A stretch of 43,871 bases of DNA from a virus (taxonomy: Duplodnaviria; Heunggongvirae; Uroviricota; Caudoviricetes), in IMG/VR virus record IMGVR_UViG_3300001282_000006, one strand, 5' to 3'. The stretch's first letter is position 1, and the number at the start of each line of letters is the position of its first letter. A model generated the notes under the pieces. It was not told the DNA's origin. It did no database searches and saw only the letters and a program-made list of their open reading frames with translations. Position numbers and translations under genes: made by a program. This document shows, piece after piece, positions 8,401 to 32,625 of the stretch.

Positions 8401-8478
8401 ATGACAACAATTACTAACATAGCGTATTATTATGAGGGAGAGCGTGGCTCAAACGTCAGACTAATGTCTATGTCGTAA
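8401..8478 (+). CDS. Leader peptide 1, MTTITNIAYYYEGERGSNVRLMSMS (Tyr/Glu sensor)
   Basis: 25-codon ORF between promoter and terminator; TAT TAT TAT GAG GGA GAG; GTCAGACT (8455-8462) complementary to the terminator 5' arm. Confidence 0.8.
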   Translation: MTTITNIAYYYEGERGSNVRLMSMS

Positions 8479-8500
8479 TGGAATCATTATGATATTAACT

Positions 8501-8532
8501 AACCCAGTCTGACTTATCAGACTGGGTTTTTT
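8501..8532 (+). terminator. Intrinsic terminator of attenuator 1
   Basis: aacccagtctga-ctta-tcagactgggtt followed by a T run. Confidence 0.9.
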
Positions 8533-8547
8533 GTTTTAAATTAAATT

Positions 8548-8638
8548 GGGAGTGTAACGTCAGCGGCATGTAAGCCGCCCCTCGTAAATATATGGCGTAT
8601 GGCTTGAGGTAACTAGTGTTCGAATCCTGGTACTCCCA
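8548..8638 (+). ncRNA. Atypical tRNA-like gene (no D arm, GTA in a 6-nt loop)
   Basis: Acceptor gggagtg/tactccc, GTTCGAATC T loop, hairpin gcggc-atGTAa-gccgc, long extra arm. Confidence 0.55.
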
Positions 8639-8644
8639 CAAAAT

Positions 8645-8716
8645 GGTCCTGTCGACTAATGGTCAGGTCAACACCCTTTCAAGGTGTAGATGCGGGTTCG
8701 ATCCCCGTCGGGACTA
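8645..8716 (+). tRNA. tRNA-Glu (TTC)
   Basis: Cloverleaf; acacc-ctTTCaa-ggtgt. Confidence 0.92.
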
Positions 8717-8723
8717 CAAATAT

Positions 8724-8806
8724 GGGAATGATGTGACACAGGTAGTCACGCTAGTCTGTAAAACTAGTGCCTTCGGGCGTTGCGAGTTCGAGTCTCGCCA
8801 TTCCCA
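8724..8806 (+). tRNA. tRNA-Tyr (GTA)
   Basis: ctagt-ctGTAaa-actag; long variable arm. Confidence 0.92.
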
Positions 8807-8824
8807 CAAAAAAATTAACAAATG

Positions 8825-8855
8825 TTTGGATAATTAAAAAATATCCTTATCTTTG
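8825..8855 (+). promoter_or_regulatory. Bacteroidota-type promoter for the second Glu/Tyr pair
   Basis: TTTG (8825) ... TATCTTTG (8848). Confidence 0.75.
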
Positions 8856-8871
8856 TAAAAGAATAAAAAAT

Positions 8872-8943
8872 GGTCCGTTAGTGAAGCGGTTAACACGCTG
8901 CCCTTTCACGGCAGAGGCACGGGTTCGAATCCCGTACGGACTA
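8872..8943 (+). tRNA. tRNA-Glu (TTC)
   Basis: ctgcc-ctTTCac-ggcag. Confidence 0.93.
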
Positions 8944-8949
8944 CAATAT

Positions 8950-9032
8950 TGGAAGGTGGGTGAGTGGTTAAAACCGACAGACTGTAAATCTGTTCTCGCA
9001 AGAGTACGGGGGTTCGAATCCCTCCCTTCCAA
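8950..9032 (+). tRNA. tRNA-Tyr (GTA)
   Basis: acaga-ctGTAaa-tctgt; long variable arm. Confidence 0.93.
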
Positions 9033-9098
9033 CAAAAATTAAAAATAACTAAAAAGGGAGTTAAAACTTTTTATATATACATTAATATAATTAAAACG

Positions 9099-9179
9099 AT
9101 GAAAAATTTAAATAACATATCAACAGCGAAAATAGGAGGCGGCGCGGGAGCGAATGTCACTGGCTGGATTATGTTGTAA
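9099..9179 (+). CDS. Leader peptide 2, MKNLNNISTAKIGGGAGANVTGWIML (Ile/Gly/Ala sensor)
   Basis: ATA GGA GGC GGC GCG GGA GCG run; TGGCTGGATT (9161-9170) can pair with the terminator 5' arm. Confidence 0.8.
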   Translation: MKNLNNISTAKIGGGAGANVTGWIML

Positions 9180-9202
9180 TTTTTTATCAAAAGAATTAAA
9201 CG

Positions 9203-9234
9203 AAACCCAGTCAATCAAATGACTGGGTTTTTTT
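9203..9234 (+). terminator. Intrinsic terminator of attenuator 2
   Basis: aaacccagtca-atcaaa-tgactgggttt followed by a T run. Confidence 0.9.
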
Positions 9235-9243
9235 ATTTTATAT

Positions 9244-9333
9244 TGGCGAATAGCAGTGGTGTCTTATACACACTATACCTGTAGCGGTAACTTGAGATAG
9301 TATCAAACGTGGGTTCGAATCCCACTTCGCCAA
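9244..9333 (+). tRNA. Atypical tRNA-Ile-like gene (TAT), no canonical D arm
   Basis: Acceptor tggcgaa/ttcgcca; perfect T arm gtggg-ttcgaat-cccac; ggtgt-ctTATac-acact. Confidence 0.6.
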
Positions 9334-9341
9334 CAAAAATT

Positions 9342-9413
9342 GCGGGTATCGTATAACGGTTATTACTCCACACTTCCAATGTGGAGATCTCGGTTCGATT
9401 CCGGGTACCCGCT
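9342..9413 (+). tRNA. tRNA-Gly (TCC)
   Basis: ccaca-ctTCCaa-tgtgg; U73. Confidence 0.93.
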
Positions 9414-9423
9414 CAAAACATAT

Positions 9424-9499
9424 GGGGTTACATGTTCCAAGGCTTAGGCGAGTTTGATTTGCGATCAGACTGTGGTGGGTTCGATTCTCACTAGCTCCA
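9424..9499 (+). tRNA. tRNA-Ala (TGC)
   Basis: tttga-ttTGCga-tcaga; G3.U70 alanine identity pair. Confidence 0.85.
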
Positions 9500-9826
9500 C
9501 AAAAAATAAAAAACGAATATGATAGTATTCAAAAACATAATTGATAATAAAACCTATATAATCTATAAGGCACCAAATGGTAATTGTTTAGCAATTCCAT
9601 TTAGACACGATGGTCCTTCTATCCCTAAATGTGATATGAAAGAATTTGTGGTTGTAAGCTCTGAAGATGGTAGATTAGATGGGTTTTTATAATAGTAAGA
9701 TATGGAAAAGAAGATAGTATTAACAGGAGAGTTTGAGTCAAGTAAAAAGAATTTGGGAAGAGACATAAGTAAAAATGGATTGGATAAATTTATTAAAAGA
9801 CTTATAAAGAAGAAAAAGTAAAATAA

Positions 9827-9898
9827 GCGAAAGTCGTATAGTGGCTATTATATCGCCTTGCCAAGGCGAGGACGGGAGTTCGATTCTCCTCTTTCGCT
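9827..9898 (+). tRNA. tRNA-Gly (GCC)
   Basis: tcgcc-ttGCCaa-ggcga. Confidence 0.93.
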
Positions 9899-9917
9899 CA
9901 AAAAATAATTATTATGG

Positions 9918-10286
9918 ATGAAAATATGTCCTAATTGTGAAAAGGTTGTTACCAAAAGAAATAACAAATACTGCGATGCTAAGTGTCAAGTAGAATTTGT
10001 AAATAAAGGTATCTATGAGAACATAGAAAATGGAGACACAACTCTTTATCATAAGACATATAAAAGACATCTTATCATCAAATATGGTGAAAAATGTATG
10101 GAATGTGGTTGGGATAAAGTAAATCCATCAACAGGTAAAGTTCCAATACAATTAGAACATATAGATGGTAACTCGGATAATAATTCTTTAGATAATTTGA
10201 AATTACTTTGTCCAAATTGTCATTCACTAACACCAACATATGGTGCTTTGAATAAAGGAAATGGACGAAAGAATAGAAAAAGATAA
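9918..10286 (+). mobile_element. Free-standing HNH homing-endonuclease-like gene inside a tRNA cluster
   Basis: CPNC..YCDAKC zinc finger, CMECG, LEHIDGNSDNNSLDNLKLLCPNCH. Confidence 0.85.
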
Positions 10287-10288
10287 AT

Positions 10289-10326
10289 GCCGGATGATCC
10301 ACCGTTGAATCACGGTGCCGGCTCCA
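10289..10326 (+). ncRNA. 38-nt tRNA minihelix-like element ending in TCCA
   Basis: gccgg-atgatc-caccg-ttgaatca-cggtg-ccggc-TCCA; abuts tRNA-Ala. Confidence 0.45.
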
Positions 10327-10400
10327 GGGGAATTAGCTCATTTGGCTAGAGCGTTTGAATGGCATTCAAAAGGTGACGAGTTCGATCCTCGTATTCTCCA
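10327..10400 (+). tRNA. tRNA-Ala (GGC)
   Basis: tttga-atGGCat-tcaaa; G3.U70. Confidence 0.92.
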
Positions 10401-10406
10401 CAAATA

Positions 10407-10436
10407 AAAAAGTCCAGTTATTTAACTGGACTTTTT
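10407..10436. terminator. Bidirectional intrinsic terminator
   Basis: aaaaagtccagtta-tt-taactggactttttt between convergent units. Confidence 0.85.
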
Positions 10437-10479
10437 TATCTTAAATCAAAGACTATAATTTCTGATTCTTTTTTTAATT

Positions 10480-11466
10480 TTATCGGTTTGTCCAATATCC
10501 ATTAGTACTCAACCAAGCCTTAGCCAATGTGACACCACCAGCATCTAAAGCAAATGATTGATTGAATTTTTTATTAACTAAAGTAGCAAAAGAAGCATCT
10601 GAAGTATCTGTTGATCTAAGAAATCCAACTGAAGCGGTAGTTTTACCTAAAAAATTATATCCACTTGGATATCCATATAATGGAATATTTAAAACTTCCA
10701 TTACTCCATAAATATAAGGACACAAAACTGGATAATAACCAGGAGCTGAAGAATTAGTTAAGACGAAAGTTGAAATGTCTACACCAACACTTGATGTTGA
10801 TGGATCTGAGCCAGCATAATTATTCCAAAGACCACCATTAACTCTTACCCACAATAGTGATAAATCATAATTAATAGCAACATCAATCACATCACCATTG
10901 GTCCAAGTAGGAAGACTAGTACCGGATAATAGTTGTGGAGCTGTAGTTTCGACACCAGTACTAAAATAAAGTTGACCAAAATCTGATAAGCCAATGCTAC
11001 GCTCATCAGCACCGCCCGGATAACCACCAAAAGGCCCTGAATAATCCATATCTGTTAACCCAATGCCAATAAAACGACCACCAGCACCAACAGTTGACTG
11101 TGTTGAAGTAAATTTAACACTAAACATTACTTTATCACCGTCAGAAATAATAGTTTGTCCTAATACTGATTGTTGATATGAAAATATTTGAGTAGCTGTT
11201 TGATTGTTATTACTTAAAACAATATCAGTTGCCTTATAAGTTGTGCTTAAAAAAAGATTATCACCAGGAACAGGAGTTGGTTGATTATCCAAAGGAACAG
11301 GTTTAGCTATTAGCCATCCACTGCCTTCTCCAGGTCCATTCCACCATTCTAATCCAGTAGATTCAAATCCAGCTGTTGGTGTCCCAACTGCTAAATCTCC
11401 TACTTGAGTTGTTCCGGCTATTGGTGCTCCGGTGTTGTATGCGAACGGTCTACTTCCTACTGCCAT
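10480..11466 (-). CDS. Putative virion fibre/decoration protein with SPRY/B30.2-like beta-sandwich
   Basis: LSNNNQTA, VMFSVKF, IGIGL, SIGL...GQLY, WTNGDVIDVAINY..LWVRVNGG.W, YYPVLCP. Confidence 0.55.
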   Translation of the reverse strand: MAVGSRPFAYNTGAPIAGTTQVGDLAVGTPTAGFESTGLEWWNGPGEGSGWLIAKPVPLDNQPTPVPGDNLFLSTTYKATDIVLSNNNQTATQIFSYQQSVLGQTIISDGDKVMFSVKFTSTQSTVGAGGRFIGIGLTDMDYSGPFGGYPGGADERSIGLSDFGQLYFSTGVETTAPQLLSGTSLPTWTNGDVIDVAINYDLSLLWVRVNGGLWNNYAGSDPSTSSVGVDISTFVLTNSSAPGYYPVLCPYIYGVMEVLNIPLYGYPSGYNFLGKTTASVGFLRSTDTSDASFATLVNKKFNQSFALDAGGVTLAKAWLSTNGYWTNR

Positions 11467-11475
11467 ATTAATTAA

Positions 11476-11709
11476 TTAATTAATTTTTTTATTATTATCT
11501 TTATTATCTGAATCTGAGTTTTTTGAGCCAAAATATCCACCAACAATACCAATTAAACCTGTAATTGACATTTGTAACAATTGAATTATATCATCATCAA
11601 TTGGTCGGTGTTCATATAAAGAAACCCAGAAATCACCTAATACTATAATAGTAAGTAAAGCCATAACTCCTCCTACCATTATAAAAACTATCCTATCTTT
11701 ATTGCTCAT
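11476..11709 (-). CDS. Small two-TM membrane protein
   Basis: Two hydrophobic helices, GIVGGYFG, charged C terminus. Confidence 0.6.
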   Translation of the reverse strand: MSNKDRIVFIMVGGVMALLTIIVLGDFWVSLYEHRPIDDDIIQLLQMSITGLIGIVGGYFGSKNSDSDNKDNNKKIN

Positions 11710-12346
11710 TACTCAAATACATTTTCTCTAAGTATAAATAAATATACTTTCTATATCTTTTAATTGTTTTTTCATCACAATACCTTTTGATATCAGACCA
11801 CAACATTGTATGTTCTGCTGGTCTCATTGCCGATCTTGGATTAAACGGAATATCTAACTGACTCATAGCCGTTTCTAAACTTCTATTCATTTTAGATAAA
11901 CCATTAGCAATTGTAAATGAAAAAGCCATAACTTCTTCTTTATTAGAAAAATAAGCTTTTCTATCTAATGGACTTGGTAATTTGTAATCAATTTGACCTT
12001 TTCTTAAACTTTGTTCAGCATGAACTCTTTCGTGTCCAATTATATCTAACATAATTTCTTTGAAGTTAGGAATAAATCTAGCCGCATTTGGATCAGATAA
12101 AACAAACATTGCTTTTCTTCTAATCGGATTAAAAAGAGCAAAGAAAGGAACACCTCTTCTTGGTGGTGCTGTTTTCTTATTTTCTTCACTTAATGTGTTA
12201 TAAAATTCATCATAATCAACTACATCAAAATCATTTCTTTGTCCAAAAGCAACAGCCGATTCAAATGAATTAACATTAGCATTATCTTCTATTGGAGTTG
12301 GTATAATAACTGCTTCAAATATTTTAAAAGGTTTAAGATGTTTCAT
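11699..12346 (-). CDS. HExxH zincin-like protein with MKHLKPF..FE N terminus
   Basis: IIGHERVHAEQ ... EEVMAF; upstream TAATATATA. Confidence 0.55.
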   Translation of the reverse strand: MKHLKPFKIFEAVIIPTPIEDNANVNSFESAVAFGQRNDFDVVDYDEFYNTLSEENKKTAPPRRGVPFFALFNPIRRKAMFVLSDPNAARFIPNFKEIMLDIIGHERVHAEQSLRKGQIDYKLPSPLDRKAYFSNKEEVMAFSFTIANGLSKMNRSLETAMSQLDIPFNPRSAMRPAEHTMLWSDIKRYCDEKTIKRYRKYIYLYLEKMYLSNEQ

Positions 12347-12391
12347 AGACTTATATATTAAATTTTATACCTAATAAATAATATATACTGA

Positions 12392-12724
12392 ATGGAATAT
12401 CTATTTGTGTATGGTTTGTTTAGAGACTCTGGTAAAAGAGTTTTAGGAGAATGTACTTATTGTGGAAGAGCTAGTATTAACGGTAAGTTATATAAAGTTA
12501 ATGAGTTTTATCCAGGATATGTAATTGATAAAAAATCTAAAGTTTATGGAGATATTTATTTAGTTGATCCTAATAATTTCTCAGCGATGGATGAATATGA
12601 AGGCGATGAGTACATTCGTACTAAAGTAAGATCATCAACAGATATTGAGTGTTGGGTTTATAAATATAAATATGATGTTGCTAACTTTGAAGAGATAAAA
12701 GGTGGTGATTGGATGTTAAGATAG
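12392..12724 (+). CDS. Gamma-glutamylcyclotransferase (AIG2-like)
   Basis: LFVYGL, YPG, VYGDIY, MDEYEG..Y.R, CWVY. Confidence 0.85.
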   Translation: MEYLFVYGLFRDSGKRVLGECTYCGRASINGKLYKVNEFYPGYVIDKKSKVYGDIYLVDPNNFSAMDEYEGDEYIRTKVRSSTDIECWVYKYKYDVANFEEIKGGDWMLR

Positions 12725-12759
12725 TCTAAACCTTTTATTATTATTTCCATAAAAGACAT

Positions 12760-13416: not shown

Positions 13417-13471
13417 TTTGTAAATATCAAATAATTCCTTATCTTTGTTAAACAAATAAAGATATACAGAA

Positions 13472-14392: not shown

Positions 14393-14407
14393 TATAAACG
14401 AAAAAAC

Positions 14408-14440
14408 GAAAAGCCATTCTAATATTAGAATGGCTTTTTT
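14408..14440. terminator. Bidirectional terminator between the REase-like gene and the MTase
   Basis: aaaagccattcta-atat-tagaatggctttttt. Confidence 0.85.
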
Positions 14441-14441
14441 A

Positions 14442-15611: not shown

Positions 15612-15713
15612 TTTATTTATTTATTTTCTTTTATATATTAAATTTTAAAAATGGTTTTCTACTTTTTCTACTTTTTCTACTAAACAACCATTATTAATTA
15701 ATATATAAGTTAT

Positions 15714-15875: not shown

Positions 15876-15907
15876 AATAATAAGAAGGTTTATTAGAATG
15901 AGGAAGA

Positions 15908-16932: not shown

Positions 16933-17073
16933 ATGGGAAAAATAAAAGAAATTTATATGGAAATCCAAGAGAAACTTGGAGAAGATGTTGAAGTAACTCA
17001 AGAAGTATTTACTCAACATTTAATTGAAAAAGGTATCTATAAACAAGATAATCAAAGAGACGAAGAAGAATAA
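16933..17073 (+). CDS. Small acidic hypothetical protein (46 aa)
   Basis: MGKIKEIYMEIQEKLGEDVEV...; lies between TATCTTTG (16905) and a terminator (17098). Confidence 0.65.
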   Translation: MGKIKEIYMEIQEKLGEDVEVTQEVFTQHLIEKGIYKQDNQRDEEE

Positions 17074-21738: not shown

Positions 21739-21840
21739 TAAAATTTGGTAGTTTAAAAATACCTCCATATATTTGTAAAACAATTGAGAGAGGCAACGAT
21801 TCAGATACAACTTTCAATTATTTTATAAAAAAATTAGGTG

Positions 21841-21911
21841 AAATTAAAACTTTTATCTATATTTGTATAAAATAAGTCAAAAGGAACAAAAAACTTTTAA
21901 TATATACTATA
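21841..21911 (+). promoter_or_regulatory. Dual-promoter cassette (TATATTTG plus TAATATATA) upstream of leader 5
   Basis: Near-identical to 31739-31810. Confidence 0.75.
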
Positions 21912-22022
21912 ATGAAAACAATGAATTTAAATATGAACATGAATACACTGACAGTGGTGAATAATACGTTATGTATTAGACCGTCTGAGGGCTTCGTCAT
22001 ATCTAAACGATTTGTTAGTTAA
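21912..22022 (+). CDS. Leader peptide 5, MKTMNLNMNMNTLTVVNNTLCIRPSEGFVISKRFVS
   Basis: First 23 codons use only M,K,T,N,L,V,C,I,R; GTCTGAGGG (21983-21991) is the exact complement of the terminator arm CCCTCAGAC. Confidence 0.85.
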   Translation: MKTMNLNMNMNTLTVVNNTLCIRPSEGFVISKRFVS

Positions 22023-22050: not shown

Positions 22051-22083
22051 AAACCCTCAGACACAAAATCTGAGGGTTTTTTT
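22051..22083 (+). terminator. Intrinsic terminator of attenuator 5
   Basis: aaaccctcaga-cacaaaa-tctgagggttt followed by a T run. Confidence 0.9.
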
Positions 22084-22098
22084 ATGCTCTTAAAACAA

Positions 22099-22183
22099 CG
22101 GTAGGTACCCGAGCGGTCTTCAGGGACTAGTCTGATACACTAGGTGAGAAATCACAACGTGGGTTCAAATCCCACCCTACCGA
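22099..22183 (+). tRNA. tRNA-Ile (GAT) with long variable arm
   Basis: ctagt-ctGATac-actag; V arm gtga-gaaa-tcac. Confidence 0.8.
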
Positions 22184-22189
22184 CAAAAT

Positions 22190-22262
22190 GGTTTCCTCGT
22201 CCAACTGGATAGGACATCGCTCTTCTAAAGCGAGAATATGGGTTCGAATCCCGTGGAGACTA
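22190..22262 (+). tRNA. tRNA-Arg (TCT)
   Basis: tcgct-ctTCTaa-agcga. Confidence 0.92.
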
Positions 22263-22269
22263 CAAATAT

Positions 22270-22341
22270 TCCTCGATAGCTCAGCGGTAGAGCAAACGAC
22301 TGTTAATCGTTAGGTCCCAGGTTCGAATCCTGGTCGGGGAG
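22270..22341 (+). tRNA. tRNA-Asn (GTT)
   Basis: aacga-ctGTTaa-tcgtt; G73. Confidence 0.95.
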
Positions 22342-22348
22342 CAAAAAT

Positions 22349-22431
22349 GCCGAAGTGGTGGAATGGTAGACACGCTAGCCTTAGGAGCTAGTACCCGAAA
22401 GGGTGTGTGGGTTCGAGTCCCACCTTCGGTA
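22349..22431 (+). tRNA. tRNA-Leu (TAG)
   Basis: ctagc-ctTAGga-gctag; type II body. Confidence 0.95.
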
Positions 22432-22436
22432 CAAAT

Positions 22437-22522
22437 TGATGGGTGTCCTGAGCGGCGAAAGGACCTGGCTGTTAACCAGACGACATTAAAGTCCACCGTG
22501 GGTTCGAGTCCCACCTCATCAG
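22437..22522 (+). tRNA. tRNA-Asn (GTT) with long variable region
   Basis: ctgg-ctGTTaa-ccag; 17-nt variable region; G73. Confidence 0.78.
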
Positions 22523-22528
22523 CAAGAT

Positions 22529-22601
22529 AGTCCTGTAGCTCAATCGGGGGAGCGCCACTGTTACATAGTGGAGGGAGTCGGATCGTAACCGACCGGGACT
22601 A
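22529..22601 (+). tRNA. tRNA-Val (TAC)
   Basis: ccact-gtTACat-agtgg; T loop ATCGTAA. Confidence 0.88.
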
Positions 22602-22607
22602 CAAAAT

Positions 22608-22681
22608 TGGAATATAGCTCAACTGGTTAGAGCATTCGCCTGATACGCGAAAGGTTGTAGGTTCGAGTCCTACTATTCCAA
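22608..22681 (+). tRNA. tRNA-Ile (GAT)
   Basis: tcgc-ctGATac-gcga; canonical body. Confidence 0.95.
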
Positions 22682-22686
22682 CAAAT

Positions 22687-22769
22687 GGTACTGTGGCCGA
22701 GTGGTGTCGAAAGACGAGAGGCACAGATCTGCAAAATCTGTCACACTGGTTCGAGCCCAGTCAGTACCT
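22687..22769 (+). tRNA. tRNA-Cys (GCA) with D-loop hairpin insertion
   Basis: cagat-ctGCAaa-atctg; U73; gtc-gaaa-gac in the D loop. Confidence 0.88.
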
Positions 22770-22774
22770 CAAAC

Positions 22775-22846
22775 GCTTCTTAAGCATTAATGGTGATGCG
22801 CTAGTCTTGTAAACTAGAGAAATCGGATCGTTACCGGTAAGAAGCT
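22775..22846 (+). tRNA. tRNA-Thr (TGT)
   Basis: ctagt-ctTGTaa-actag; T loop ATCGTTA. Confidence 0.9.
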
Positions 22847-22851
22847 CAAAT

Positions 22852-22997
22852 CAGTAGGACCCTATATTAGGTGGTAACTTCTAGAGAAGCCACATAAAGA
22901 ACTGGTCCGGGTTAAAAACCAAACTTGATTATTTGATATTCTAGAAAATGTCATTTAGTTCGGATTGGGAAGGTGGGTTCGATTCCCACCCTACTGT
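22852..22997 (+). ncRNA. 146-nt tRNA-like RNA (acceptor and T arm enclosing a large structured insert)
   Basis: cagtagg (22852) pairs with cctactg (22990); perfect T arm gtggg-ttcgatt-cccac; several internal hairpins. Confidence 0.6.
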
Positions 22998-23003
22998 CAA
23001 AAT

Positions 23004-23075
23004 TGCCTTGTAGCTCAATGGGAGAGCACTTCCTTGACATGGAAGAGGTAGTGGGATCGTTACCCACCAAGGCAA
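23004..23075 (+). tRNA. tRNA-Val (GAC)
   Basis: cttcc-ttGACat-ggaag; T loop ATCGTTA. Confidence 0.9.
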
Positions 23076-23100
23076 CAAAATAATGGATGGTGATTAAGAG

Positions 23101-23173
23101 TGTTACTTCGTGAAATGGTATACACATTTGTCTTAAAAACAAACTTTTGAAGGTTCAAGTCCTTCAGTAAAAT
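23101..23173 (+). tRNA. Degenerate tRNA with TAA (Leu) anticodon but short variable loop
   Basis: Leu-type D arm gtg-aaatggtata-cac; tttgt-ctTAAaa-acaaa; T arm gaagg-ttcaagt-ccttc; one acceptor mismatch. Confidence 0.55.
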
Positions 23174-23200
23174 CACTCTTTAGACTTTCCTCCATTATAT

Positions 23201-23284
23201 GCCGATGTGGCTCAGTGGCGACAGCACTGGTTTTGTAAACCAGAGACGAATAGTCCAACGGGGGTTCGAGTCCCTCCATCGGCT
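23201..23284 (+). tRNA. tRNA-Thr (TGT) with long variable region
   Basis: ctggt-ttTGTaa-accag; variable region agacgaatagtccaac. Confidence 0.82.
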
Positions 23285-23299
23285 CAAAATAAATCACCT

Positions 23300-23383
23300 G
23301 CCTGGGTGGTGGAACGGTAGACACGAGGGACTTAAAATCCCTTGCCCCAAAAGGGCGTGAGGGTTCGAGTCCCTCTCCAGGTA
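23300..23383 (+). tRNA. tRNA-Leu (TAA)
   Basis: aggga-ctTAAaa-tccct; type II body. Confidence 0.95.
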
Positions 23384-23414
23384 CTGAAGTGAAACGAAAG
23401 TTCACTACAAATAT

Positions 23415-23501
23415 CGCGGGGTAGAGTAGAGGTCAAACTCACTGGGCTCATAACCCAGGGTTGCGCAAGTGACACGTCAGGTTCGAATCCTGCCCCCGCT
23501 A
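23415..23501 (+). tRNA. Initiator-type tRNA-Met (CAT) with long variable arm
   Basis: C1 mismatch; ctggg-ctCATaa-cccag (3 GC pairs); V arm gttgc-gcaa-gtgac. Confidence 0.8.
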
Positions 23502-23507
23502 CAACAA

Positions 23508-23580
23508 GCAGTTATCGTATAGTCGGTGATTACACCACCTTGGTACGGTGGAGACTCCGGTTCGACTCCGGATGATTGCT
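23508..23580 (+). tRNA. tRNA-Thr (GGT)
   Basis: ccacc-ttGGTac-ggtgg. Confidence 0.92.
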
Positions 23581-23585
23581 CAGAT

Positions 23586-23666
23586 GCCCAGATGGTGGAA
23601 TGGTAGACACTCCGGTCTAAGAAGCCGGTGCCGCAAGGCGTGAGAGTTCGAGTCTCTCTTTGGGTA
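23586..23666 (+). tRNA. tRNA-Leu (AAG)
   Basis: ccggt-ctAAGaa-gccgg; Leu-type D loop, V arm and A73. Confidence 0.88.
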
Positions 23667-23671
23667 CAAAT

Positions 23672-23741
23672 GCCGTGGCTTAGTGGAAAAGAGCCTACTC
23701 TCATAAGGTGGGTTAAGTGAGTTCGAACCTCATACACGGTA
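23672..23741 (+). tRNA. Degenerate tRNA, 8-nt loop CTTCATAA (Met CAT plus one nt, or TCA)
   Basis: Intact T arm and D arm; about 3 nt missing after the acceptor 5' strand. Confidence 0.5.
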
Positions 23742-23746
23742 CAAAT

Positions 23747-23827
23747 GTCAGAATGGTGGAATGGTATACACACTGGTTTCAAAAGCCAGCGCCTAATGGT
23801 ATGAGAGTTCAAGTCTCTCTTCTGATA
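23747..23827 (+). tRNA. tRNA-Leu (CAA)
   Basis: ctggt-ttCAAaa-gccag; type II body. Confidence 0.92.
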
Positions 23828-23849
23828 CTCGATAAAAAAGCCAATAAAA

Positions 23850-24628: not shown

Positions 24629-24693
24629 AATGTATATATTTGTTTTTATAAATCCATTTATCTATATTTGTATCTTAATTCAAAAATATAAAT

Positions 24694-24831: not shown

Positions 24832-24873
24832 AATAAATTTTGATATTAAACACTTTTTTCTTAAATTTGTAAA

Positions 24874-26346
24874 ATGAAAAACATCGTAACAAGAATCGCA
24901 CCCTCACCAACTGGACCTTTTGCTCATATTGGTAATGTAAGAACACTATTATATAACTACTTTCTTGCTAAGAAAAGTGGTGGTAAATTCTTTGTGAGAT
25001 TGGAAGACACCGACAGAGACCGTTATACGGCTTCGTTTCTAACATATTTCAAAGATATGTGTGATTGGCTTGGTATAGTACCAGATGGTTCTTATTGGAA
25101 CCCAGATCCTTCTATCGGCTCTTTCACTCAATCAACAAGAGATTATTCTGATAAAGTTAAATTTTTATTAGATAACGAATTTGCTTATTATGCTTTTGAT
25201 TCTAAAGATGATTTAGACTTGGCTCATAAAACAATTCCTAACTTCAAATACGATGCTACAACTCGTATGACTATGAAGAACTCATTAACAATGACTAAAT
25301 CGGATGTTGATGCGGCTATTGCTACAGGTAACTATGTTATTCGTTTTGCTGTAACTCCAGATGTTGATGTTGTAATCAACGATGCTATTTTAGGAGATAT
25401 CACAATCAGTACTAATACTTTAGATGATAAAGTTTTGATTAAGTCAAATGGTATTGGTTCTTACCACCTTTGTAATGTTTGTGACGACCACGATATGGGT
25501 GTTACTCACGTTCTTAGAGGTAACGAGTGGGTAAACTCAACTCCTTTCCATGTTATTCTTTACAAGGCTTTTGGTTGGGATGTTCCAACATTCGCTCATC
25601 TACCTTTAATTATGAATCCAGATGGTAAAGGTAAGTTGTCTAAGAGAACTGCTATGAAGTATGGTATTCCAATTGCGCCACTTGGTTACACTGACGAAAA
25701 CGGTGTTTACAATGATGGTTGGAAAGATTTAGGTTTTGACCCAAAAGCATTTATGAACTATCTTGCCTTAATTGGTTGGAATCCAGGTGCTGAAGTTGAA
25801 ATTATGTCTATGGATGATATGATTAACTCATTCTCTTTAGATAGAGTTCACAAGGCTGGGGCTCGTTTCGATATGGATAAAGCAAAGTGGATGAACTCAC
25901 AATATCTTAAATTAACAGACAATAAAGACTTAATGCCTTATGTCCATGTAGTTGATGATAGATACTCTGATGATAAGTTAGATGCTATTGTTTCATTGGC
26001 TAAAGATAGAGCTGACTTCAAAACTGACTTAAACAAAATTGTTAAATTGTTCTTTGATTTACCAACTATCGATGATAGAAGTAAGTTAGATGATAACTAT
26101 ACAAAAGTTATGTCAGACTTCATCAATAAGATTGATACAATCAACTTTGATGATACGAACTCAATCAAAGACACTATCTCAGCAATCTGTAATGATTTAG
26201 GTGTTAAGATGGGTAAAGTAATGCCTGGTTTAAGAATGGCTTTAGTATCTGGTATTGCGGGTCCGGACTTAATGACAACAATGTCAATTTTAGGTAAAGA
26301 CCAAACTAAGTTGAGAATTAACAACTCGATTGTAGTAATGGCTTAA
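24874..26346 (+). CDS. gltX: Glutamate--tRNA ligase
   Basis: RIAPSPTG..HIGN, RLEDTD, THVLRGNEW, FAHLPLI, KLSKR, C-terminal anticodon domain. Confidence 0.95.
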   Translation: MKNIVTRIAPSPTGPFAHIGNVRTLLYNYFLAKKSGGKFFVRLEDTDRDRYTASFLTYFKDMCDWLGIVPDGSYWNPDPSIGSFTQSTRDYSDKVKFLLDNEFAYYAFDSKDDLDLAHKTIPNFKYDATTRMTMKNSLTMTKSDVDAAIATGNYVIRFAVTPDVDVVINDAILGDITISTNTLDDKVLIKSNGIGSYHLCNVCDDHDMGVTHVLRGNEWVNSTPFHVILYKAFGWDVPTFAHLPLIMNPDGKGKLSKRTAMKYGIPIAPLGYTDENGVYNDGWKDLGFDPKAFMNYLALIGWNPGAEVEIMSMDDMINSFSLDRVHKAGARFDMDKAKWMNSQYLKLTDNKDLMPYVHVVDDRYSDDKLDAIVSLAKDRADFKTDLNKIVKLFFDLPTIDDRSKLDDNYTKVMSDFINKIDTINFDDTNSIKDTISAICNDLGVKMGKVMPGLRMALVSGIAGPDLMTTMSILGKDQTKLRINNSIVVMA

Positions 26347-26348
26347 AA

Positions 26349-26380
26349 GAAAAAACCTCTGATTTCTCAGAGGTTTTTTT
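26349..26380. terminator. Bidirectional terminator
   Basis: aaaaaacctctga-tttc-tcagaggttttttt. Confidence 0.88.
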
Positions 26381-26383
26381 ATA

Positions 26384-28669: not shown

Positions 28670-28785
28670 AACTTATATATTAAAAAAGTAATTTCAGATA
28701 TTATTTAAATTAATTCTTAATAAATTTGGATATTGTGGATAACCTCCGTATATTTGTATATAAGTAGAAAAAAACTATAGACAAG

Positions 28786-30036
28786 ATGAACATTAAAGAT
28801 AAATTTCTAGAACTAACAAGTAGAACATACCCTCACGGAACTGAGGAAGATGTTTTTCCTTTGTTAAATTCAGAATTACAAAAAGACGAGTTTGGTAACT
28901 TATTTATCAAGATTGGTGAGAGCGATGTAATGTTTACTTCTCACTTAGATACTGCTACATCAGCACTTACTCAAGTTAATCACGTTTTTGACGGTAAGAT
29001 TATCAAGACTGATGGTAAATCAATTTTAGGAGCAGATGATAAAGCTGGTGTAACAATTATGCTTTATATGATTGAAAACAAAATACCAGGACTTTACTAC
29101 TTTTTCTTAGGTGAAGAAGTTGGTTGTGTTGGTTCAAGAAAAGTTGCCAATGTTCAGAAAGACCAAAAGATTGAAGGTATCAACAAAGTAATTTCATTTG
29201 ACCGTAGAGGTAATGATTCAGTTATTACTTTCCAATCTTCTCAAAGATGTTGTTCAGATGTTTTTGGTGAGGCTTTATCAAAACAATTAAACTTGGCCGA
29301 TGATTCTTTCTCATACAAAAATGACCCAACTGGTATCTTAACTGACTCTGTTCAATTTATTAAAATCTATTCTGAGTGTACTAATATCTCTGTAGGTTAT
29401 CGATCAGAACACACATTCTCAGAACAACAAGATATCGAACACTTGACCAAATTGGCTGAGGCTTGTTTATTAGTTGATTGGAATGGTTTACCTGTTGATA
29501 GAGATCCTTCTAAAACTGAATACAAATCATACGGTGGTGGATACGGATGGGATGAATGGGATGATTATTACTCAGGTGGTGGTGTAGGCGCATCAAGATG
29601 GAATAATAACATCACTAAAAAATATGAGCCTAGAACTGATAAAGTTTGGTTCCACGATAAAAAATACAACTACGTTTCTAATGTAGAGATTGATTCTTTA
29701 ACTAAGAAAGTTGTATCAGTTGACTTGTGTAAAGAACGTGTTGATTATGAATCAATGATTATTAATAACTTATTAAAATCTTTAGATTTACAATACAACT
29801 CTTGTGAGTGGGATGGTTTCAAGTTGAAAGTTGATTATAAACAAGATGCTGGTAACCACACAACAGAGTGTAACCGTAACGACTTGTTAGAGTACTTACC
29901 AGAATTGGATTACTCAAAAGGTGACGACTTAGGTTCTGATAGTTTAGATAACTACTACAACACAGTTGCTTATCAAAGAGACCAAGAACAAACAAGAGGC
30001 GAAGACTTGTACAGAGGCTACGCTGACTTTGACTAA
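28786..30036 (+). CDS. M20/M28-family zinc peptidase with C-terminal extension
   Basis: SHLDT, LGADDKAG, GEEVG, ISFDR, NISVGY..EH. Confidence 0.85.
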   Translation: MNIKDKFLELTSRTYPHGTEEDVFPLLNSELQKDEFGNLFIKIGESDVMFTSHLDTATSALTQVNHVFDGKIIKTDGKSILGADDKAGVTIMLYMIENKIPGLYYFFLGEEVGCVGSRKVANVQKDQKIEGINKVISFDRRGNDSVITFQSSQRCCSDVFGEALSKQLNLADDSFSYKNDPTGILTDSVQFIKIYSECTNISVGYRSEHTFSEQQDIEHLTKLAEACLLVDWNGLPVDRDPSKTEYKSYGGGYGWDEWDDYYSGGGVGASRWNNNITKKYEPRTDKVWFHDKKYNYVSNVEIDSLTKKVVSVDLCKERVDYESMIINNLLKSLDLQYNSCEWDGFKLKVDYKQDAGNHTTECNRNDLLEYLPELDYSKGDDLGSDSLDNYYNTVAYQRDQEQTRGEDLYRGYADFD

Positions 30037-30039
30037 TAT

Positions 30040-30061
30040 GAGCCGGGAAACCGGCTCTTTT
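30040..30061 (+). terminator. Intrinsic terminator
   Basis: gagccgg-gaaa-ccggctc-tttt. Confidence 0.8.
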
Positions 30062-30208
30062 AATATTGATTGTATGTTTACATTTATTAAAAAGAGAAAG
30101 TTAAAAAGAAAAGTCTTTAATGAGTTTAAAAAAGCTCAAACTGAAAAAAATTATGAAAAGATTGATATCTTAGGTAAAAGATATTTAAAAATAAAATAAA
30201 TAAAATCA

Positions 30209-30619
30209 TTGAATAAAGAAGTTGAAATATTAAAGATAGGTTCTATTATACCAACTGAAGGTAGAGATACTATTATGGTTGTCTTTGATGGTGGTACTAT
30301 TTTTGACCACTATGTTTCTATTCTAAAAGAAAAATGTGGGGATGAATATAAATATCTAAAAACTCAACAATCTATTGTTGGAACACCAAGTGATCGTCCT
30401 GATAGATTTTCTAGATTTGATAAACCATCTAATACATTAAAAGGAATACAAAATAAAGAACCAAAGATAGGTGAGTCTTATGGTGTAGTAAATTGGTACA
30501 CATCAACTGTTAATAAAATAATAGATGATAATATTCTAATTACAAGAAATTCAGTTTATGCTATTCATGATATTTCTAAATTAAGAGATAAAATATTAAA
30601 TGACTTAGGTATAAACTAA
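30209..30619 (+). CDS. Hypothetical protein
   Basis: 136 aa ORF, TTG start, translationally coupled to the next gene. Confidence 0.6.
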   Translation: MNKEVEILKIGSIIPTEGRDTIMVVFDGGTIFDHYVSILKEKCGDEYKYLKTQQSIVGTPSDRPDRFSRFDKPSNTLKGIQNKEPKIGESYGVVNWYTSTVNKIIDDNILITRNSVYAIHDISKLRDKILNDLGIN

Positions 30620-30999
30620 TGAAACCATTAAGAATAAGTTTTGATTTTGATTGTACGTTAGGTGAGACTATCATCCAACGTAAGGCTAGTTTATTAATAA
30701 ACTCAACTGAATATTCGGATATATTTATCATCACTGCTAGATGTGAAGGTAGAAATCATAATAGAGATCTTTATTCAGTTGCTAATCGATTGAGAATACC
30801 TGATGAAAATATTTATTTCACTGAAGGTAGTTGGAAGTGGAGAAAAATAAAAGAATTAGAAATAGATATACACTTTGATGATGTTCCAGAAGAGTGTGAG
30901 TTAATATCTAAAAATACAAGTTGTATACCACTTTTAATTTGGGATGAATCTTGTAAAGATTCAATTAAACATGATTCTTTTGGTAAAGGAATTTACTGA
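30619..30999 (+). CDS. HAD-superfamily phosphatase-like protein
   Basis: ISFDFDCTL, IITAR, K, HFDD. Confidence 0.75.
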   Translation: MKPLRISFDFDCTLGETIIQRKASLLINSTEYSDIFIITARCEGRNHNRDLYSVANRLRIPDENIYFTEGSWKWRKIKELEIDIHFDDVPEECELISKNTSCIPLLIWDESCKDSIKHDSFGKGIY

Positions 31000-31080
31000 A
31001 AAAATAATAAACTAAATTTTAATTAAGTATATAACAAGTGGTAATAATACCAAAAAATAAAAATAAACAAGAATAAAAGA

Positions 31081-31272
31081 ATGAAAACAGGAACAGTAAA
31101 GTTCTACAATGAAGCTAAAGGATTTGGTTTCATCACAGACGAAAACGGAACGGACGTGTTTGTACACGCTACAGGACTAAACGATGAAATCAGAGAAAAC
31201 GATTCAGTTAACTTTGAAGTAACAGAAGGTAAAAAAGGATTAAGCGCAGTTAATGTAACAGTTAACTCTTAA
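31081..31272 (+). CDS. csp: Cold-shock domain protein
   Basis: GTVKFYNEAKGFGFIT..DVFVH..V.FEV.EGKKG..A.NV. Confidence 0.95.
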   Translation: MKTGTVKFYNEAKGFGFITDENGTDVFVHATGLNDEIRENDSVNFEVTEGKKGLSAVNVTVNS

Positions 31273-31295
31273 TATATTTTTAGTACTAAAGAATT

Positions 31296-31327
31296 AAAGC
31301 CCTTAGATTTTTATCTGAGGGTTTTTT
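31296..31327 (+). terminator. Intrinsic terminator
   Basis: aaagcccttaga-tttta-tctgagggttttttg. Confidence 0.75.
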
Positions 31328-31351
31328 GTTTTAAAAATTAATATATAATCT

Positions 31352-31720
31352 ATGAAATATTTACAATCAATAAATGAATATCAAAGAACCGTAGGATTCA
31401 GATATTCTGAACCAAAAGAATCTTATAATATTGACATATTATTAAGAGGTGAAGATATCACTGAAGATAAAATAATCTTAGGTTTATCTAAAGTTAGTGA
31501 GTTGTTTTACGACCAAGAGTCTGTTGAAGTTAATATTCTTGATGAAGGAACTGTTGCTGAGTTAGAAGATGGTGCTGTTGAAATAGATGCTGTTGCTCAT
31601 TTTAACATTACTGTTTATAATGAAAGAGAAATACTTACTATAGTTGAAGAACTAGGTAGAAAATTAACACCTTTTAATATTGAAATATTAGATTTCAAAT
31701 CAAAAGAAAATTTCAAATAA
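31352..31720 (+). CDS. Hypothetical acidic protein with MKYLQSINE N terminus
   Basis: 122 aa; upstream TAATATATA. Confidence 0.7.
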   Translation: MKYLQSINEYQRTVGFRYSEPKESYNIDILLRGEDITEDKIILGLSKVSELFYDQESVEVNILDEGTVAELEDGAVEIDAVAHFNITVYNEREILTIVEELGRKLTPFNIEILDFKSKENFK

Positions 31721-31732
31721 AAATAAAAAATA

Positions 31733-31810
31733 TTTGACAAATTAAAACTTTGTTGTATATTTGTATAAAATAAGAACAAAAGGAAGAAATCCTTTTTAAT
31801 ATATACTGAA
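31733..31810 (+). promoter_or_regulatory. Dual-promoter cassette upstream of leader 3
   Basis: TTTG (31733), TATATTTG (31756), TAATATATA (31798). Confidence 0.78.
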
Positions 31811-31909
31811 ATGAAAAACTTAAACTTAAATATCGTTAACCCGCAACCACAAGTTGTAATCGATCAGGATCCTGATACGAAAGGGGCTAACTATGTGGTT
31901 TTAAGTTAA
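31811..31909 (+). CDS. Leader peptide 3, MKNLNLNIVNPQPQVVIDQDPDTKGANYVVLS (Pro/Gln/Asp sensor)
   Basis: CCG CAA CCA CAA ... GAT CAG GAT CCT GAT; GGCTAACT (31885-31892) pairs with AGTTAGTC in the terminator arm. Confidence 0.8.
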   Translation: MKNLNLNIVNPQPQVVIDQDPDTKGANYVVLS

Positions 31910-31933
31910 GAAAATATTTAACTATGAAACATT

Positions 31934-31966
31934 ACCCAGTTAGTCGAAAGATTAACTGGGTTTTTT
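31934..31966 (+). terminator. Intrinsic terminator of attenuator 3
   Basis: acccagttagtc-gaaa-gattaactgggt followed by a T run. Confidence 0.9.
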
Positions 31967-31981
31967 GTTTTTAGTAAAAAA

Positions 31982-32055
31982 CGGGTAGTGACTAAGGTTT
32001 TAAGCACGGGGGCTCTGGAGGCTTCAGTTAGTCGGTTCGATTCCGACCTACCCGA
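31982..32055 (+). tRNA. Atypical tRNA, anticodon CTG (Gln) or TGG (Pro) depending on register
   Basis: Perfect acceptor cgggtag/ctacccg and T arm; anticodon region ggggg-ctctggag-gcttc. Confidence 0.6.
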
Positions 32056-32098
32056 CAAAATACTCTTTAGAGAATAGAGTAAAAGAATTCTCAAATAC

Positions 32099-32171
32099 GG
32101 ATGTGAGGTCAAACGGTTAAGATGTCTGCCTGTCACGCAGTTCGGAGCGGGTTCAACTCCCGTCACGTCCG
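32099..32171 (+). tRNA. tRNA-Asp (GTC)
   Basis: ctgc-ctGTCac-gcag; G73. Confidence 0.9.
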
Positions 32172-32177
32172 CAAATT

Positions 32178-32248
32178 GGTCCTGTAGTTAAACGGCTATA
32201 ATGTCGCCCTGCACGGCGAAGTTCGGAGTTCGATTCTCCGTGGGACCG
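32178..32248 (+). tRNA. tRNA-Asp-like gene with 6-nt anticodon loop (ctgcac)
   Basis: Asp-like body and G73; tcgcc-ctgcac-ggcga, one nt short of ctGTCac. Confidence 0.65.
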
Positions 32249-32253
32249 CAAAA

Positions 32254-32330
32254 CGAGATGTTGGGGAGTCCGGTTACCCCGCCTGCTTTGGGAGCAGGAG
32301 AACTCGCAGGTTCGAATCCTGCCATCTCGA
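32254..32330 (+). tRNA. tRNA-Pro (TGG)
   Basis: cctgc-ttTGGga-gcagg; C1-G72. Confidence 0.93.
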
Positions 32331-32360
32331 CAAAGAAACAAAATATTAATAAATAGAATT

Positions 32361-32411
32361 ATGAAAACAACATCACAATACCAACAACAACAAATTAATC
32401 GAACAGATTGA
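32361..32411 (+). CDS. Leader peptide 4, MKTTSQYQQQQINRTD (Gln sensor)
   Basis: Five CAA codons; CAGATTGA (32404-32411) is the exact complement of TCAATCTG in the terminator. Confidence 0.85.
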   Translation: MKTTSQYQQQQINRTD

Positions 32412-32439
32412 TAACGGTATCGTATTGTTAAAACTTTAC

Positions 32440-32474
32440 AAACCCTATTCAATCTGATTGAATAGGGTTTTTTT
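32440..32474 (+). terminator. Intrinsic terminator of attenuator 4
   Basis: aaaccctattcaat-ctg-attgaatagggttt followed by a T run. Confidence 0.9.
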
Positions 32475-32476
32475 AT

Positions 32477-32548
32477 TGCTCCATAGTATATGGGTGATCA
32501 TATCTGTCTTTGAAACAGATGAGCTTGGTTCGAGTCCAAGTGGAGCAA
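32477..32548 (+). tRNA. tRNA-Gln (TTG)
   Basis: tctgt-ctTTGaa-acaga; U1-A72. Confidence 0.9.
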
Positions 32549-32554
32549 CAACAA

Positions 32555-32625
32555 TGTCTCGTAGTGTAACGGCAGCACAGAAGATTTTGACTCTTCTAGT
32601 CTAGGTTCGAATCCTAGCGAGACAA
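32555..32625 (+). tRNA. tRNA-Gln (TTG)
   Basis: gaaga-ttTTGac-tcttc; U1-A72. Confidence 0.93.

Follow-up and report, generated by a model that had tools for sequence, protein, structure and literature searches.

Multivalent attenuators of enterobacteria, such as ilvL of the ilvGMEDA operon (Ile/Leu/Val) and thrL (Thr/Ile), and likewise trpL, hisL, leuL and pheL, carry a short translated open reading frame (ORF) with a run of regulatory codons. In E. coli, the pheM leader-pheST attenuator places an aminoacyl-tRNA synthetase under leader-peptide control. Bacterial and phage tRNA operons are subject to growth-rate and stringent control at the promoter level, and stage-specific promoters serve them in T4 and T5; control of tRNA genes is normally thought to act at promoters. 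Here we analyzed a stretch of 43,871 nucleotides (nt) of tailed-phage DNA (Caudoviricetes; IMG/VR record IMGVR_UViG_3300001282_000006), referred to as a whole as the window. It has a G+C content of ~29% and contains 32 tRNA genes called by ARAGORN, which lie in three regions and without exception on the + strand. All but one of them (31/32) stand behind five units that consist of a short leader ORF followed by an intrinsic terminator. We assign a probability of roughly 0.78 to the reading that these units are ribosome-mediated (leader-peptide) transcription attenuators placed before tRNA operons.

A sequence-only reading of the window had described five leader-terminator-tRNA units, and all five were recovered at the positions it gave, with ORFs of 25, 26, 36, 32 and 16 codons. 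The units are made up as follows:

8401-8478, + strand: leader ORF 1, 25 codons, cognate run Tyr-Tyr-Tyr-Glu-Gly-Glu at 8425-8442
8501-8535, + strand: intrinsic terminator 1, stem 8501-8528 of 12 bp, -19.1 kcal/mol, T-run
8645-9033, + strand: tRNA block 1, Glu(ttc), Tyr(gta), Glu(ttc), Tyr(gta)
9099-9179, + strand: leader ORF 2, 26 codons, Gly-Gly-Gly-Ala-Gly-Ala within 9126-9152
9203-9237, + strand: intrinsic terminator 2, stem 9203-9230 of 11 bp, -15.9 kcal/mol, T-run
9244-10401, + strand: tRNA block 2, an odd 91-nt tRNA, Gly(tcc), Ala(tgc), small ORFs, Gly(gcc), an HNH endonuclease ORF, Ala(ggc)
21912-22022, + strand: leader ORF 3, 36 codons, of which codons 3-23 span 21918-21980
22051-22086, + strand: intrinsic terminator 3, stem 22051-22079 of 11 bp, -15.3 kcal/mol, T-run
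22099-23828, + strand: tRNA block 3, 17 ARAGORN tRNAs (Ile, Arg, Asn, Leu, Val, Thr, Met) and tRNA-Cys(GCA)
31811-31909, + strand: leader ORF 4, 32 codons, Pro-Gln-Pro-Gln ... Asp-Gln-Asp-Pro-Asp at 31841-31876
31934-31968, + strand: intrinsic terminator 4, stem 31934-31961 of 12 bp, -18.0 kcal/mol, T-run
31982-32331, + strand: tRNA block 4, a weak Pro(tgg)-like tRNA, Asp(gtc), a tRNA with a 6-nt anticodon loop, Pro(tgg)
32361-32411, + strand: leader ORF 5, 16 codons, five Gln codons at 32376-32393
32440-32477, + strand: intrinsic terminator 5, stem 32440-32470 of 14 bp, -16.1 kcal/mol, T-run
32477-32626, + strand: tRNA block 5, two tRNA-Gln(ttg)
32644-34248, + strand: glutaminyl-tRNA synthetase (GlnRS) gene, Pfam tRNA-synt_1c at 4.6e-98 and both anticodon-binding domains

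The distance from the leader stop codon to the hairpin is 22-28 nt in the five units, and the terminators have stems of 11-14 bp with energies of -15.3 to -19.1 kcal/mol, each followed by a T-run. That all five frames are open by chance has a probability of ~1.5e-5. Only 6-19 nt separate the terminator stem from the first ARAGORN-called tRNA in units 2, 3 and 5, a gap that fits no promoter, so that these tRNAs would be reached only by read-through. The corresponding spacing is 116 nt in unit 1 and 137 nt in unit 4, and both spacers contain a tRNA-like element. Block 2 is closed by a further terminator at 10409-10434. Unit 5 runs in the order Gln leader, terminator, two tRNA-Gln genes, an 18-nt gap and GlnRS. 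Neither a promoter nor a terminator was found in this gap, and the next terminator lies at 34332-34355; the synthetase gene is therefore most likely co-transcribed with the tRNA-Gln genes, and attenuator 5 probably gates GlnRS as well.

The GlnRS also points to the relatives of the window. It shares 78% identity with a protein of LR745206 (635 kb) and 73% with one of LR756502 (642 kb), which are among the four largest phage genomes of Al-Shayeb et al. 2020 (PMC7162821) and were assigned there to the Mahaphage clade, with Bacteroidetes as predicted hosts. The closest record to the window is an IMG/VR fragment of 55 kb (G001). From these similarities, the window is assigned to a huge phage related to the Mahaphage genomes. 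For comparison, all tRNA clusters were located in LR756502, LR745206 and the IMG/VR genomes G004 (476 kb), G002 (519 kb) and G003 (508 kb), which together with the window gave a set of 37 units. LR756501 (735 kb) and LR756511 (41% GC) were additionally examined for the design. Every one of the 37 units has a start codon and an open frame (ATG; GTG in the extra example from LR756511), and in every one the stop codon lies 19-36 nt before the terminator. Leader 1 has homologues in LR756502, LR745206 and G004.

The content of each leader follows the tRNAs behind it. A Tyr/Glu run in leader 1 precedes Glu/Tyr tRNAs, a Gly/Ala run in leader 2 precedes Gly/Ala tRNAs, Pro/Gln/Asp codons in leader 4 precede Pro/Asp tRNAs and five Gln codons in leader 5 precede two tRNA-Gln genes. 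Codons 3-23 of leader 3 all specify Thr, Met, Asn, Leu, Val, Cys, Ile or Arg, and for each of these amino acids block 3 holds a tRNA gene. The conserved Cys codon (TGT) of this leader was only seemingly an exception: it is matched by a tRNA-Cys(GCA) gene at 22687-22769, which carries a 13-nt insert in the D-loop, was missed by ARAGORN at default settings and scores 53.8 bits with Infernal. Homologues of this gene occupy the same place in LR756502, LR745206 and G004.

The match was quantified in several ways. The claim that leader codons match their own tRNA block was borne out, since the true assignment of leaders to clusters in the window is the single best of 120 possible pairings. Of the 14 amino acids whose tRNAs sit behind exactly one window leader, 9 reach their highest content in that very leader (2.8 expected, p = 4e-4). 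Binomial tests of whole leaders against the window proteome gave p = 0.14, 0.002, 7e-4, 0.12 and 2e-5 for leaders 1-5; the values for leaders 2 and 5 correspond to 8 cognate residues out of 25 and 5 out of 15, respectively. Rare G/C-ending synonyms (GCG, GGC, GTG, CTG, ACG, GAG) account for 15 of 45 cognate codons, compared with 5.9 expected (p = 4e-4), an excess for which the G+C demand of the RNA helices is an alternative cause. The proposed codon-anticodon match stood at the amino-acid level; at the strict codon level it did not hold throughout, as Arg and Ser codons are only partly met. Because relaxed ARAGORN runs altered some anticodon calls, our case is built on the amino-acid-level match.

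Further support comes from the related genomes. It had been predicted that the Lys, Phe, His, Ser and Trp tRNAs lacking from the window would lie in other blocks behind leaders rich in those codons. Such blocks were found: LR756502, LR745206, G004 and G003 each contain a Phe/His/(Trp)/Lys block behind a leader core like K-H-K-H-F-S-K..K-W-F and an Arg/Ser block behind a core like S-S-R-S-R-S-S. The seven leaders of complete relatives jointly cover all 20 amino acids. Splitting, fusion or reshuffling of tRNA blocks is accompanied by matching changes in the leaders. In G002, a K-K-K-K-K leader is followed by five tRNA-Lys genes alone, Phe/Ser/Asn/His/Thr tRNAs stand behind a leader made of just those residues, the core T-L-R-Q-L-V-L-E-Q-L-I-E precedes a block of Leu, Arg, Glu and Ile tRNAs with one tRNA-Met, and a 46-codon leader with W, P, V, M, T, G, A, I, D, Y and R precedes a mixed block of 19 tRNAs. 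The Glu/Tyr and Gly/Ile/Ala blocks of G003 are fused, and so is their leader (I-Y-I-G-Y-I-A-E-G-G-Y-E-A-G). The true assignment is the best of 5040, 5040, 5040, 120 and 720 pairings in the five related genomes. Counted over amino-acid/genome cases, the leader before the tRNA is richest in the residue in 63 of 92 (15.2 expected; the genomes are related, and the p value overstates their independence). Homologous leaders keep their cognate residues despite synonymous codon changes. Outside the comparison set, LR756501 has a Leu-rich leader before five tRNA-Leu genes, and LR756511 has a Ser/Leu/Tyr-rich leader with a GTG start and a Shine-Dalgarno-like GAAAGGA before four Ser, one Leu and one Tyr tRNA (locus L032, reverse strand, ~2300-2480 of the reversed locus). 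The latter example indicates that the design is not confined to AT-rich phages with Bacteroidota-type signals.

An attenuator also needs a competing RNA structure. In each window unit, the 3' part of the leader ORF contains a segment complementary to the 5' arm of the terminator, and these segments are predicted antiterminators (p values from 1000 dinucleotide shuffles per unit):

8455-8462, + strand: antiterminator 1, 8-nt complement of the 5' arm, duplex -13.1 kcal/mol, p = 0.052
9161-9167, + strand: antiterminator 2, 7 nt including one G-U pair, -11.5 kcal/mol, p = 0.085
21983-21991, + strand: antiterminator 3, 9 nt, perfect complement of the 5' arm, -18.4 kcal/mol, p = 0.001
31885-31899, + strand: antiterminator 4, 7 contiguous pairs and 5 across two small bulges, -11.4 kcal/mol, p = 0.141
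32404-32411, + strand: antiterminator 5, 8 nt including the TGA stop codon of the leader, p = 0.007

The complementarity is real across the five units (Fisher combined p = 3e-5), and individually clear only in units 3 and 5. It is shorter than the 8-10 nt of the sequence-only reading, measuring 7-9 nt and including a G-U pair in units 2 and 4. In the comparative set, p <= 0.05 was reached by 20 of 37 units. The antiterminator 2 segment pairs with the terminator arm of G004 at -20.1 kcal/mol, so the pairing is weaker in the window than in this close relative. When the 3' arm was left out, the 3' part of the ORF became the minimum-energy partner of the 5' arm in most units; the full-length fold is the terminator.

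Antiterminators and terminators co-vary across the relatives, as had been expected of them. ORF/arm pairs were exchanged within each family in 2000 random swaps, and the cognate pairs sum to -389.9 kcal/mol versus -341.1 +/- 12.1 kcal/mol for swapped pairs, a value that none of the 2000 swaps reached. The signal stems from families with diverged terminators, namely unit 3 in G003, the Gln unit in G002, Lys/His/Phe and Gly/Ala, and by this measure it amounts to compensatory change. Counting of pairs in a MAFFT alignment of the unit-3 family was dropped in favor of the swap test, as the most distant member was misaligned across the antiterminator. The position of the pairing is regular as well. 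The first base of the last cognate codon lies 11-15 nt before the start of the antiterminator in four of the five window units (15 nt in unit 1); in unit 3 the cognate run reaches closer to this segment. With this geometry, a ribosome stalled on the run would leave the antiterminator free, while a ribosome at the stop codon would cover it. A trp-like region 1:2 helix was tested for and is not supported, because the strongest duplex that the upstream ORF forms with the antiterminator does not surpass those of codon-order shuffles. The design would therefore comprise three elements, and an untranslated leader should default to read-through.

Together, all comparative tests run support the core of the sequence-only reading, in which the cognate codons of the leader ORF would decide between antiterminator and terminator. 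We infer that the leaders are translated and that read-through depends on stalling. Transcription would begin at a host-type or phage-type promoter, and the short ORF would be translated at once. If the cognate run is decoded fast, the ribosome would move over the antiterminator, the terminator hairpin would form and RNA polymerase would stop short of the tRNA genes. A scarcity of the matching charged tRNAs would stall the ribosome on the cognate codons, 11-15 nt upstream of the antiterminator, which would then pair with the 5' arm of the terminator, and the tRNA block, in unit 5 along with GlnRS, would be transcribed. As the product would be the sensed molecule, each unit would form a negative-feedback, on-demand supply loop for one amino-acid group. 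Candidate triggers are feedback on the supply of the phage's own tRNAs, the loss of host tRNAs to nucleases or by late depletion, and amino-acid starvation.

The last of these triggers leads to the rival explanation that survives best, although we consider it unlikely: the same hardware would sense amino-acid starvation, as in trp and his attenuation, and tRNAs and GlnRS would be raised as a general response to poor charging. A stalled ribosome cannot distinguish a missing amino acid from a missing tRNA, and the fact that unit 5 also appears to drive a synthetase gene resembles the leader-peptide control of E. coli pheST. Extra tRNA, however, cannot relieve a lack of amino acid, and the one-to-one match to tRNAs across all 20 amino acids is hard to explain by starvation. 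The leaders moreover prefer rare codons read by wobble, which are the most dependent on tRNA concentration.

A second rival, which we hold to be quite unlikely, dispenses with sensing. The hairpins would be fixed terminators, leaky or overridden by a factor, or else hairpins for RNA processing or 3'-end stabilization, and the short ORFs would have no sensing role; the timing of tRNA synthesis would be set by a phage antitermination factor or a phage-type promoter. The promoters of the units bear on this proposal. Matches to a Bacteroidota-type pattern (TTTG, 17-21 nt, TAnnTTTG) numbered 11 in the window versus 2.5 expected, and a second motif of the type ACTTTTTAATATATAC recurred upstream of translation-apparatus genes:

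8336-8367, + strand: Bacteroidota-type promoter of leader 1, TTTG, spacer, TAtaTTTG (pattern scan)
8825-8855, + strand: host-type promoter inside block 1, before the second Glu/Tyr pair (pattern scan)
21744-21775, + strand: Bacteroidota-type promoter of leader 3 (pattern scan)
31733-31763, + strand: Bacteroidota-type promoter of leader 4 (pattern scan)
8212-8227: ACTTTTTAATATATAC-type motif before the stand-alone tRNA-Met (motif scan)
9065-9080, + strand: ACTTTTTAATATATAC-type motif before leader 2 (motif scan)
21892-21907, + strand: ACTTTTTAATATATAC-type motif 5 nt before leader 3 (motif scan)
31791-31806, + strand: ACTTTTTAATATATAC-type motif before leader 4 (motif scan)

The idea of a promoter before every unit was thus only partly right: Bacteroidota-type promoters precede leaders 1, 3 and 4, and none was found before leaders 2 and 5. 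By eye, a second TAtaTTTG box lies ~90 nt downstream of the leader-3 promoter. Upstream of leader 5 neither a Bacteroidota-type promoter nor ACTTTTTAATATATAC was found, and this unit therefore probably relies on transcripts from unit 4. With up to 3 mismatches, ACTTTTTAATATATAC occurs before leaders 2, 3 and 4 and the tRNA-Met, and at five other places in the window, all with 3 mismatches. The sequence AAAGGGA often stands ~10 nt upstream of it, and the motif is conserved in the relatives. It is a candidate phage-specific promoter for translation-apparatus genes. A GluRS-type gene in the window (24874-26346), a second class I synthetase with an Anticodon_2 domain, has its own host-type promoter at 24839-24869 and no leader.

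Stage-specific transcription, as suggested by ACTTTTTAATATATAC before leaders 2-4 and the stand-alone tRNA-Met, and antiterminator helices that are short and in three of five units individually non-significant would both suit fixed hairpins. Such hairpins leave unexplained why leader content tracks tRNA content in every genome, including the rearranged blocks, why the ORFs are open with a constant stop-to-terminator gap of 19-36 nt, and why the 3' part of the ORF co-varies with the terminator arm. The attenuator reading also accommodates the tRNA-Met gene at 8246-8318, the sole tRNA outside the units. An initiator-like 1-72 mismatch marks this gene in the window and three relatives alike. The special motif stands before it, but neither a leader nor a terminator does, and the layout recurs in LR745206, G004 and G003. 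Its position fits attenuation, because stalling during elongation could not sense an initiator.

An opposite polarity, in which efficient leader translation with ample phage tRNA would open the terminator in a feed-forward loop, is a logical alternative for any leader ORF before a terminator and has nothing specific in its favor. It is very improbable here, as a ribosome terminating at a stop codon 19-36 nt upstream of the terminator cannot cover the 5' arm, whose only alternative partner lies inside the ORF and would be masked by a translating ribosome. Least probable of all is a translation-independent, T-box-like mechanism, in which leader triplets would pair with the anticodons of uncharged tRNAs and stabilize the antiterminator: the triplets do match downstream anticodons and T-box RNAs are known tRNA-sensing attenuators, yet Rfam models of the T-box and of other cis-regulatory families gave no hit in the window, the frame is open from a start codon in all 37 units and closes at a fixed spacing from the terminator, homologues keep cognate residues through synonymous codon changes, and each leader contains many different triplets, unlike a single specifier loop.

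Several observations weigh against leader-peptide attenuation. The 7-9 bp antiterminator helices are much weaker than the terminators, and three of the five do not reach significance on their own. A region 1:2 (anti-antiterminator) helix is unsupported in the 37 units (median p = 0.22 against codon-order shuffles; 5/37 below 0.05). Whole-leader enrichment is weak for leaders 1 and 4 taken alone (p = 0.14 and 0.12), and leader 4 contains more Gln than Pro and Asp. The presence of Gln codons in leader 4, with the Gln tRNAs behind attenuator 5, may nevertheless fit the reading: as unit 5 lacks a promoter of its own, a shortage of Gln would have to open gates 4 and 5. In one relative (locus L014), a tRNA-Gln gene lies inside the Pro/Asp block. 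For AGT Ser codons, which the Ser/Arg leaders of relatives contain, no tRNA with a GCT anticodon was detected in some genomes, and the related genomes are statistically not independent. The promoter at 8825-8855 inside block 1 would let the second Glu/Tyr pair escape attenuator 1; it is absent from LR756502, whose Glu/Tyr pairs are 10 nt apart. Finally, the reading presupposes that transcription and translation are tightly coupled in the host, predicted to belong to the Bacteroidota.

The window also contains unusual tRNA genes and tRNA-like elements. Between terminator 1 and the first tRNA-Glu lies a tRNA-like stretch (8549-8640) for which Rfam gave no hit even with the cutoff raised to E = 10; its call as Ala(ggc) with a 13-nt intron by relaxed ARAGORN is tentative. 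In block 2, the 91-nt tRNA gene at 9244-9334 has an abnormal anticodon region, and relatives have Ile(tat) at this place. The tRNA at 32178-32249, among the Asp/Pro tRNAs, has a 6-nt anticodon loop, and its homologue in G004 is called '(gt)'. These two genes may be decaying copies or serve unusual decoding. An element of ~150 nt at 22848-23003 has complementary acceptor-like ends, a perfect T-arm GTGGGTTCGATTCCCAC and a long unexplained body; models of transfer-messenger RNA and tRNA match its T-arm only, and it may represent a tRNA carrying a large insert, or else an RNA derived from a tRNA. The operon of block 2 includes an HNH endonuclease ORF (9918-10286) between tRNA-Gly(gcc) and tRNA-Ala(ggc), and two more small ORFs (9519-9692 and 9704-9822). 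Other pairs of a small ORF and a terminator in the window (16933-17073; 31081-31272) were considered as further attenuators and rejected as ordinary small genes. The latter, just upstream of unit 4, resembles a cold-shock protein gene (KFYNEAKGFGFI motif) and has its own terminator.

A tRNA with a cta anticodon (ARAGORN label 'Pyl') is present in the relative G003 within 120500-122300 (locus L030) and hints at TAG suppression or recoding in part of the clade. TAG ends two leaders of relatives, that of unit 3 in LR756502 and the Gln leader of locus L012, and in view of this hint their true ends may differ. Stop-codon recoding was also considered for the window and rejected, as genetic code 11 reads it normally: ORFs of >=100 aa cover 78% of it, and TAG makes up 3 of 39 stop codons.

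Our judgement is evenly divided on the wider proposal that the largest known phages carry a complete, modular translation homeostat of ~7 independent leader-peptide sensors, covering all 20 amino acids, each of which would gauge the decoding rate of its codons in real time and switch on the matching tRNA block alone and, for Gln, the synthetase. If it is true, phage translation would be independent of the host tRNA pool, tRNAs cut by host anticodon nucleases or decayed late in infection would be replaced automatically, and the near-complete tRNA sets of huge phages would have a direct functional reason. It would moreover be the first example of tRNA genes controlled through their own decoding activity. 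For the translation apparatus, a switch that senses how fast specific codons are decoded and answers with those very tRNAs would be regulatory logic of a new kind. It would make testable why and when large phages use their tRNA genes, with the leaders spelling the shortage that each block answers. Being small (~150 nt) and modular, the units could be transferred to reporter constructs and might find use as natural codon-specific sensors that report tRNA availability or anticodon-nuclease defence.

To place the units among known systems, full-text literature was searched for a leader peptide or attenuator before tRNA genes; none was found, in agreement with the initial suspicion of novelty, in a coverage that excludes most subscription journals. 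The words attenuat-, leader and terminator are absent from the huge-phage paper (PMC7162821). The same script applied to a T5-like Klebsiella phage (25 tRNAs), the Ralstonia jumbo phage RsoM2USA (17) and a cyanophage (5) found no upstream terminator and no leaders. A scan of the whole window against Rfam with cmscan returned tRNA hits only, with no T-box (RF00230), no His_leader, Trp_leader, Thr_leader, Leu_leader or other leader family, and neither a specifier loop nor a T-box sequence is present in the window. Judged by their layout, the units would act like leader-peptide attenuators, yet they belong to no described family.

With T-box riboswitches they would share transcription attenuation that answers a specific tRNA state through the choice between terminator and antiterminator. 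A T-box, however, binds the tRNA directly without a ribosome and controls genes for synthetases, transport and biosynthesis, whereas the elements found here are open reading frames. Like the usual bacterial and phage tRNA operons, the blocks are polycistronic and flanked by intrinsic terminators; in those operons the terminator follows the tRNA genes, whereas here one also precedes them. As in pheM-pheST, a leader rich in cognate codons would gate a gene of the translation apparatus, and unit 5 likely gates GlnRS. Unlike in pheM-pheST, two tRNA-Gln genes lie between attenuator and synthetase gene, and the other four units would gate nothing but tRNA genes. With the ilvL/thrL type of attenuator, the units have in common a terminator with a competing antiterminator, several amino acids per leader and rare synonymous codons. 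They differ from this type in that no 1:2 helix was found, in being phage-borne and in comprising seven units for 20 amino acids in complete relatives. Above all, the regulated genes are tRNA genes and not those of biosynthetic enzymes, so that the molecule sensed would be the product itself.

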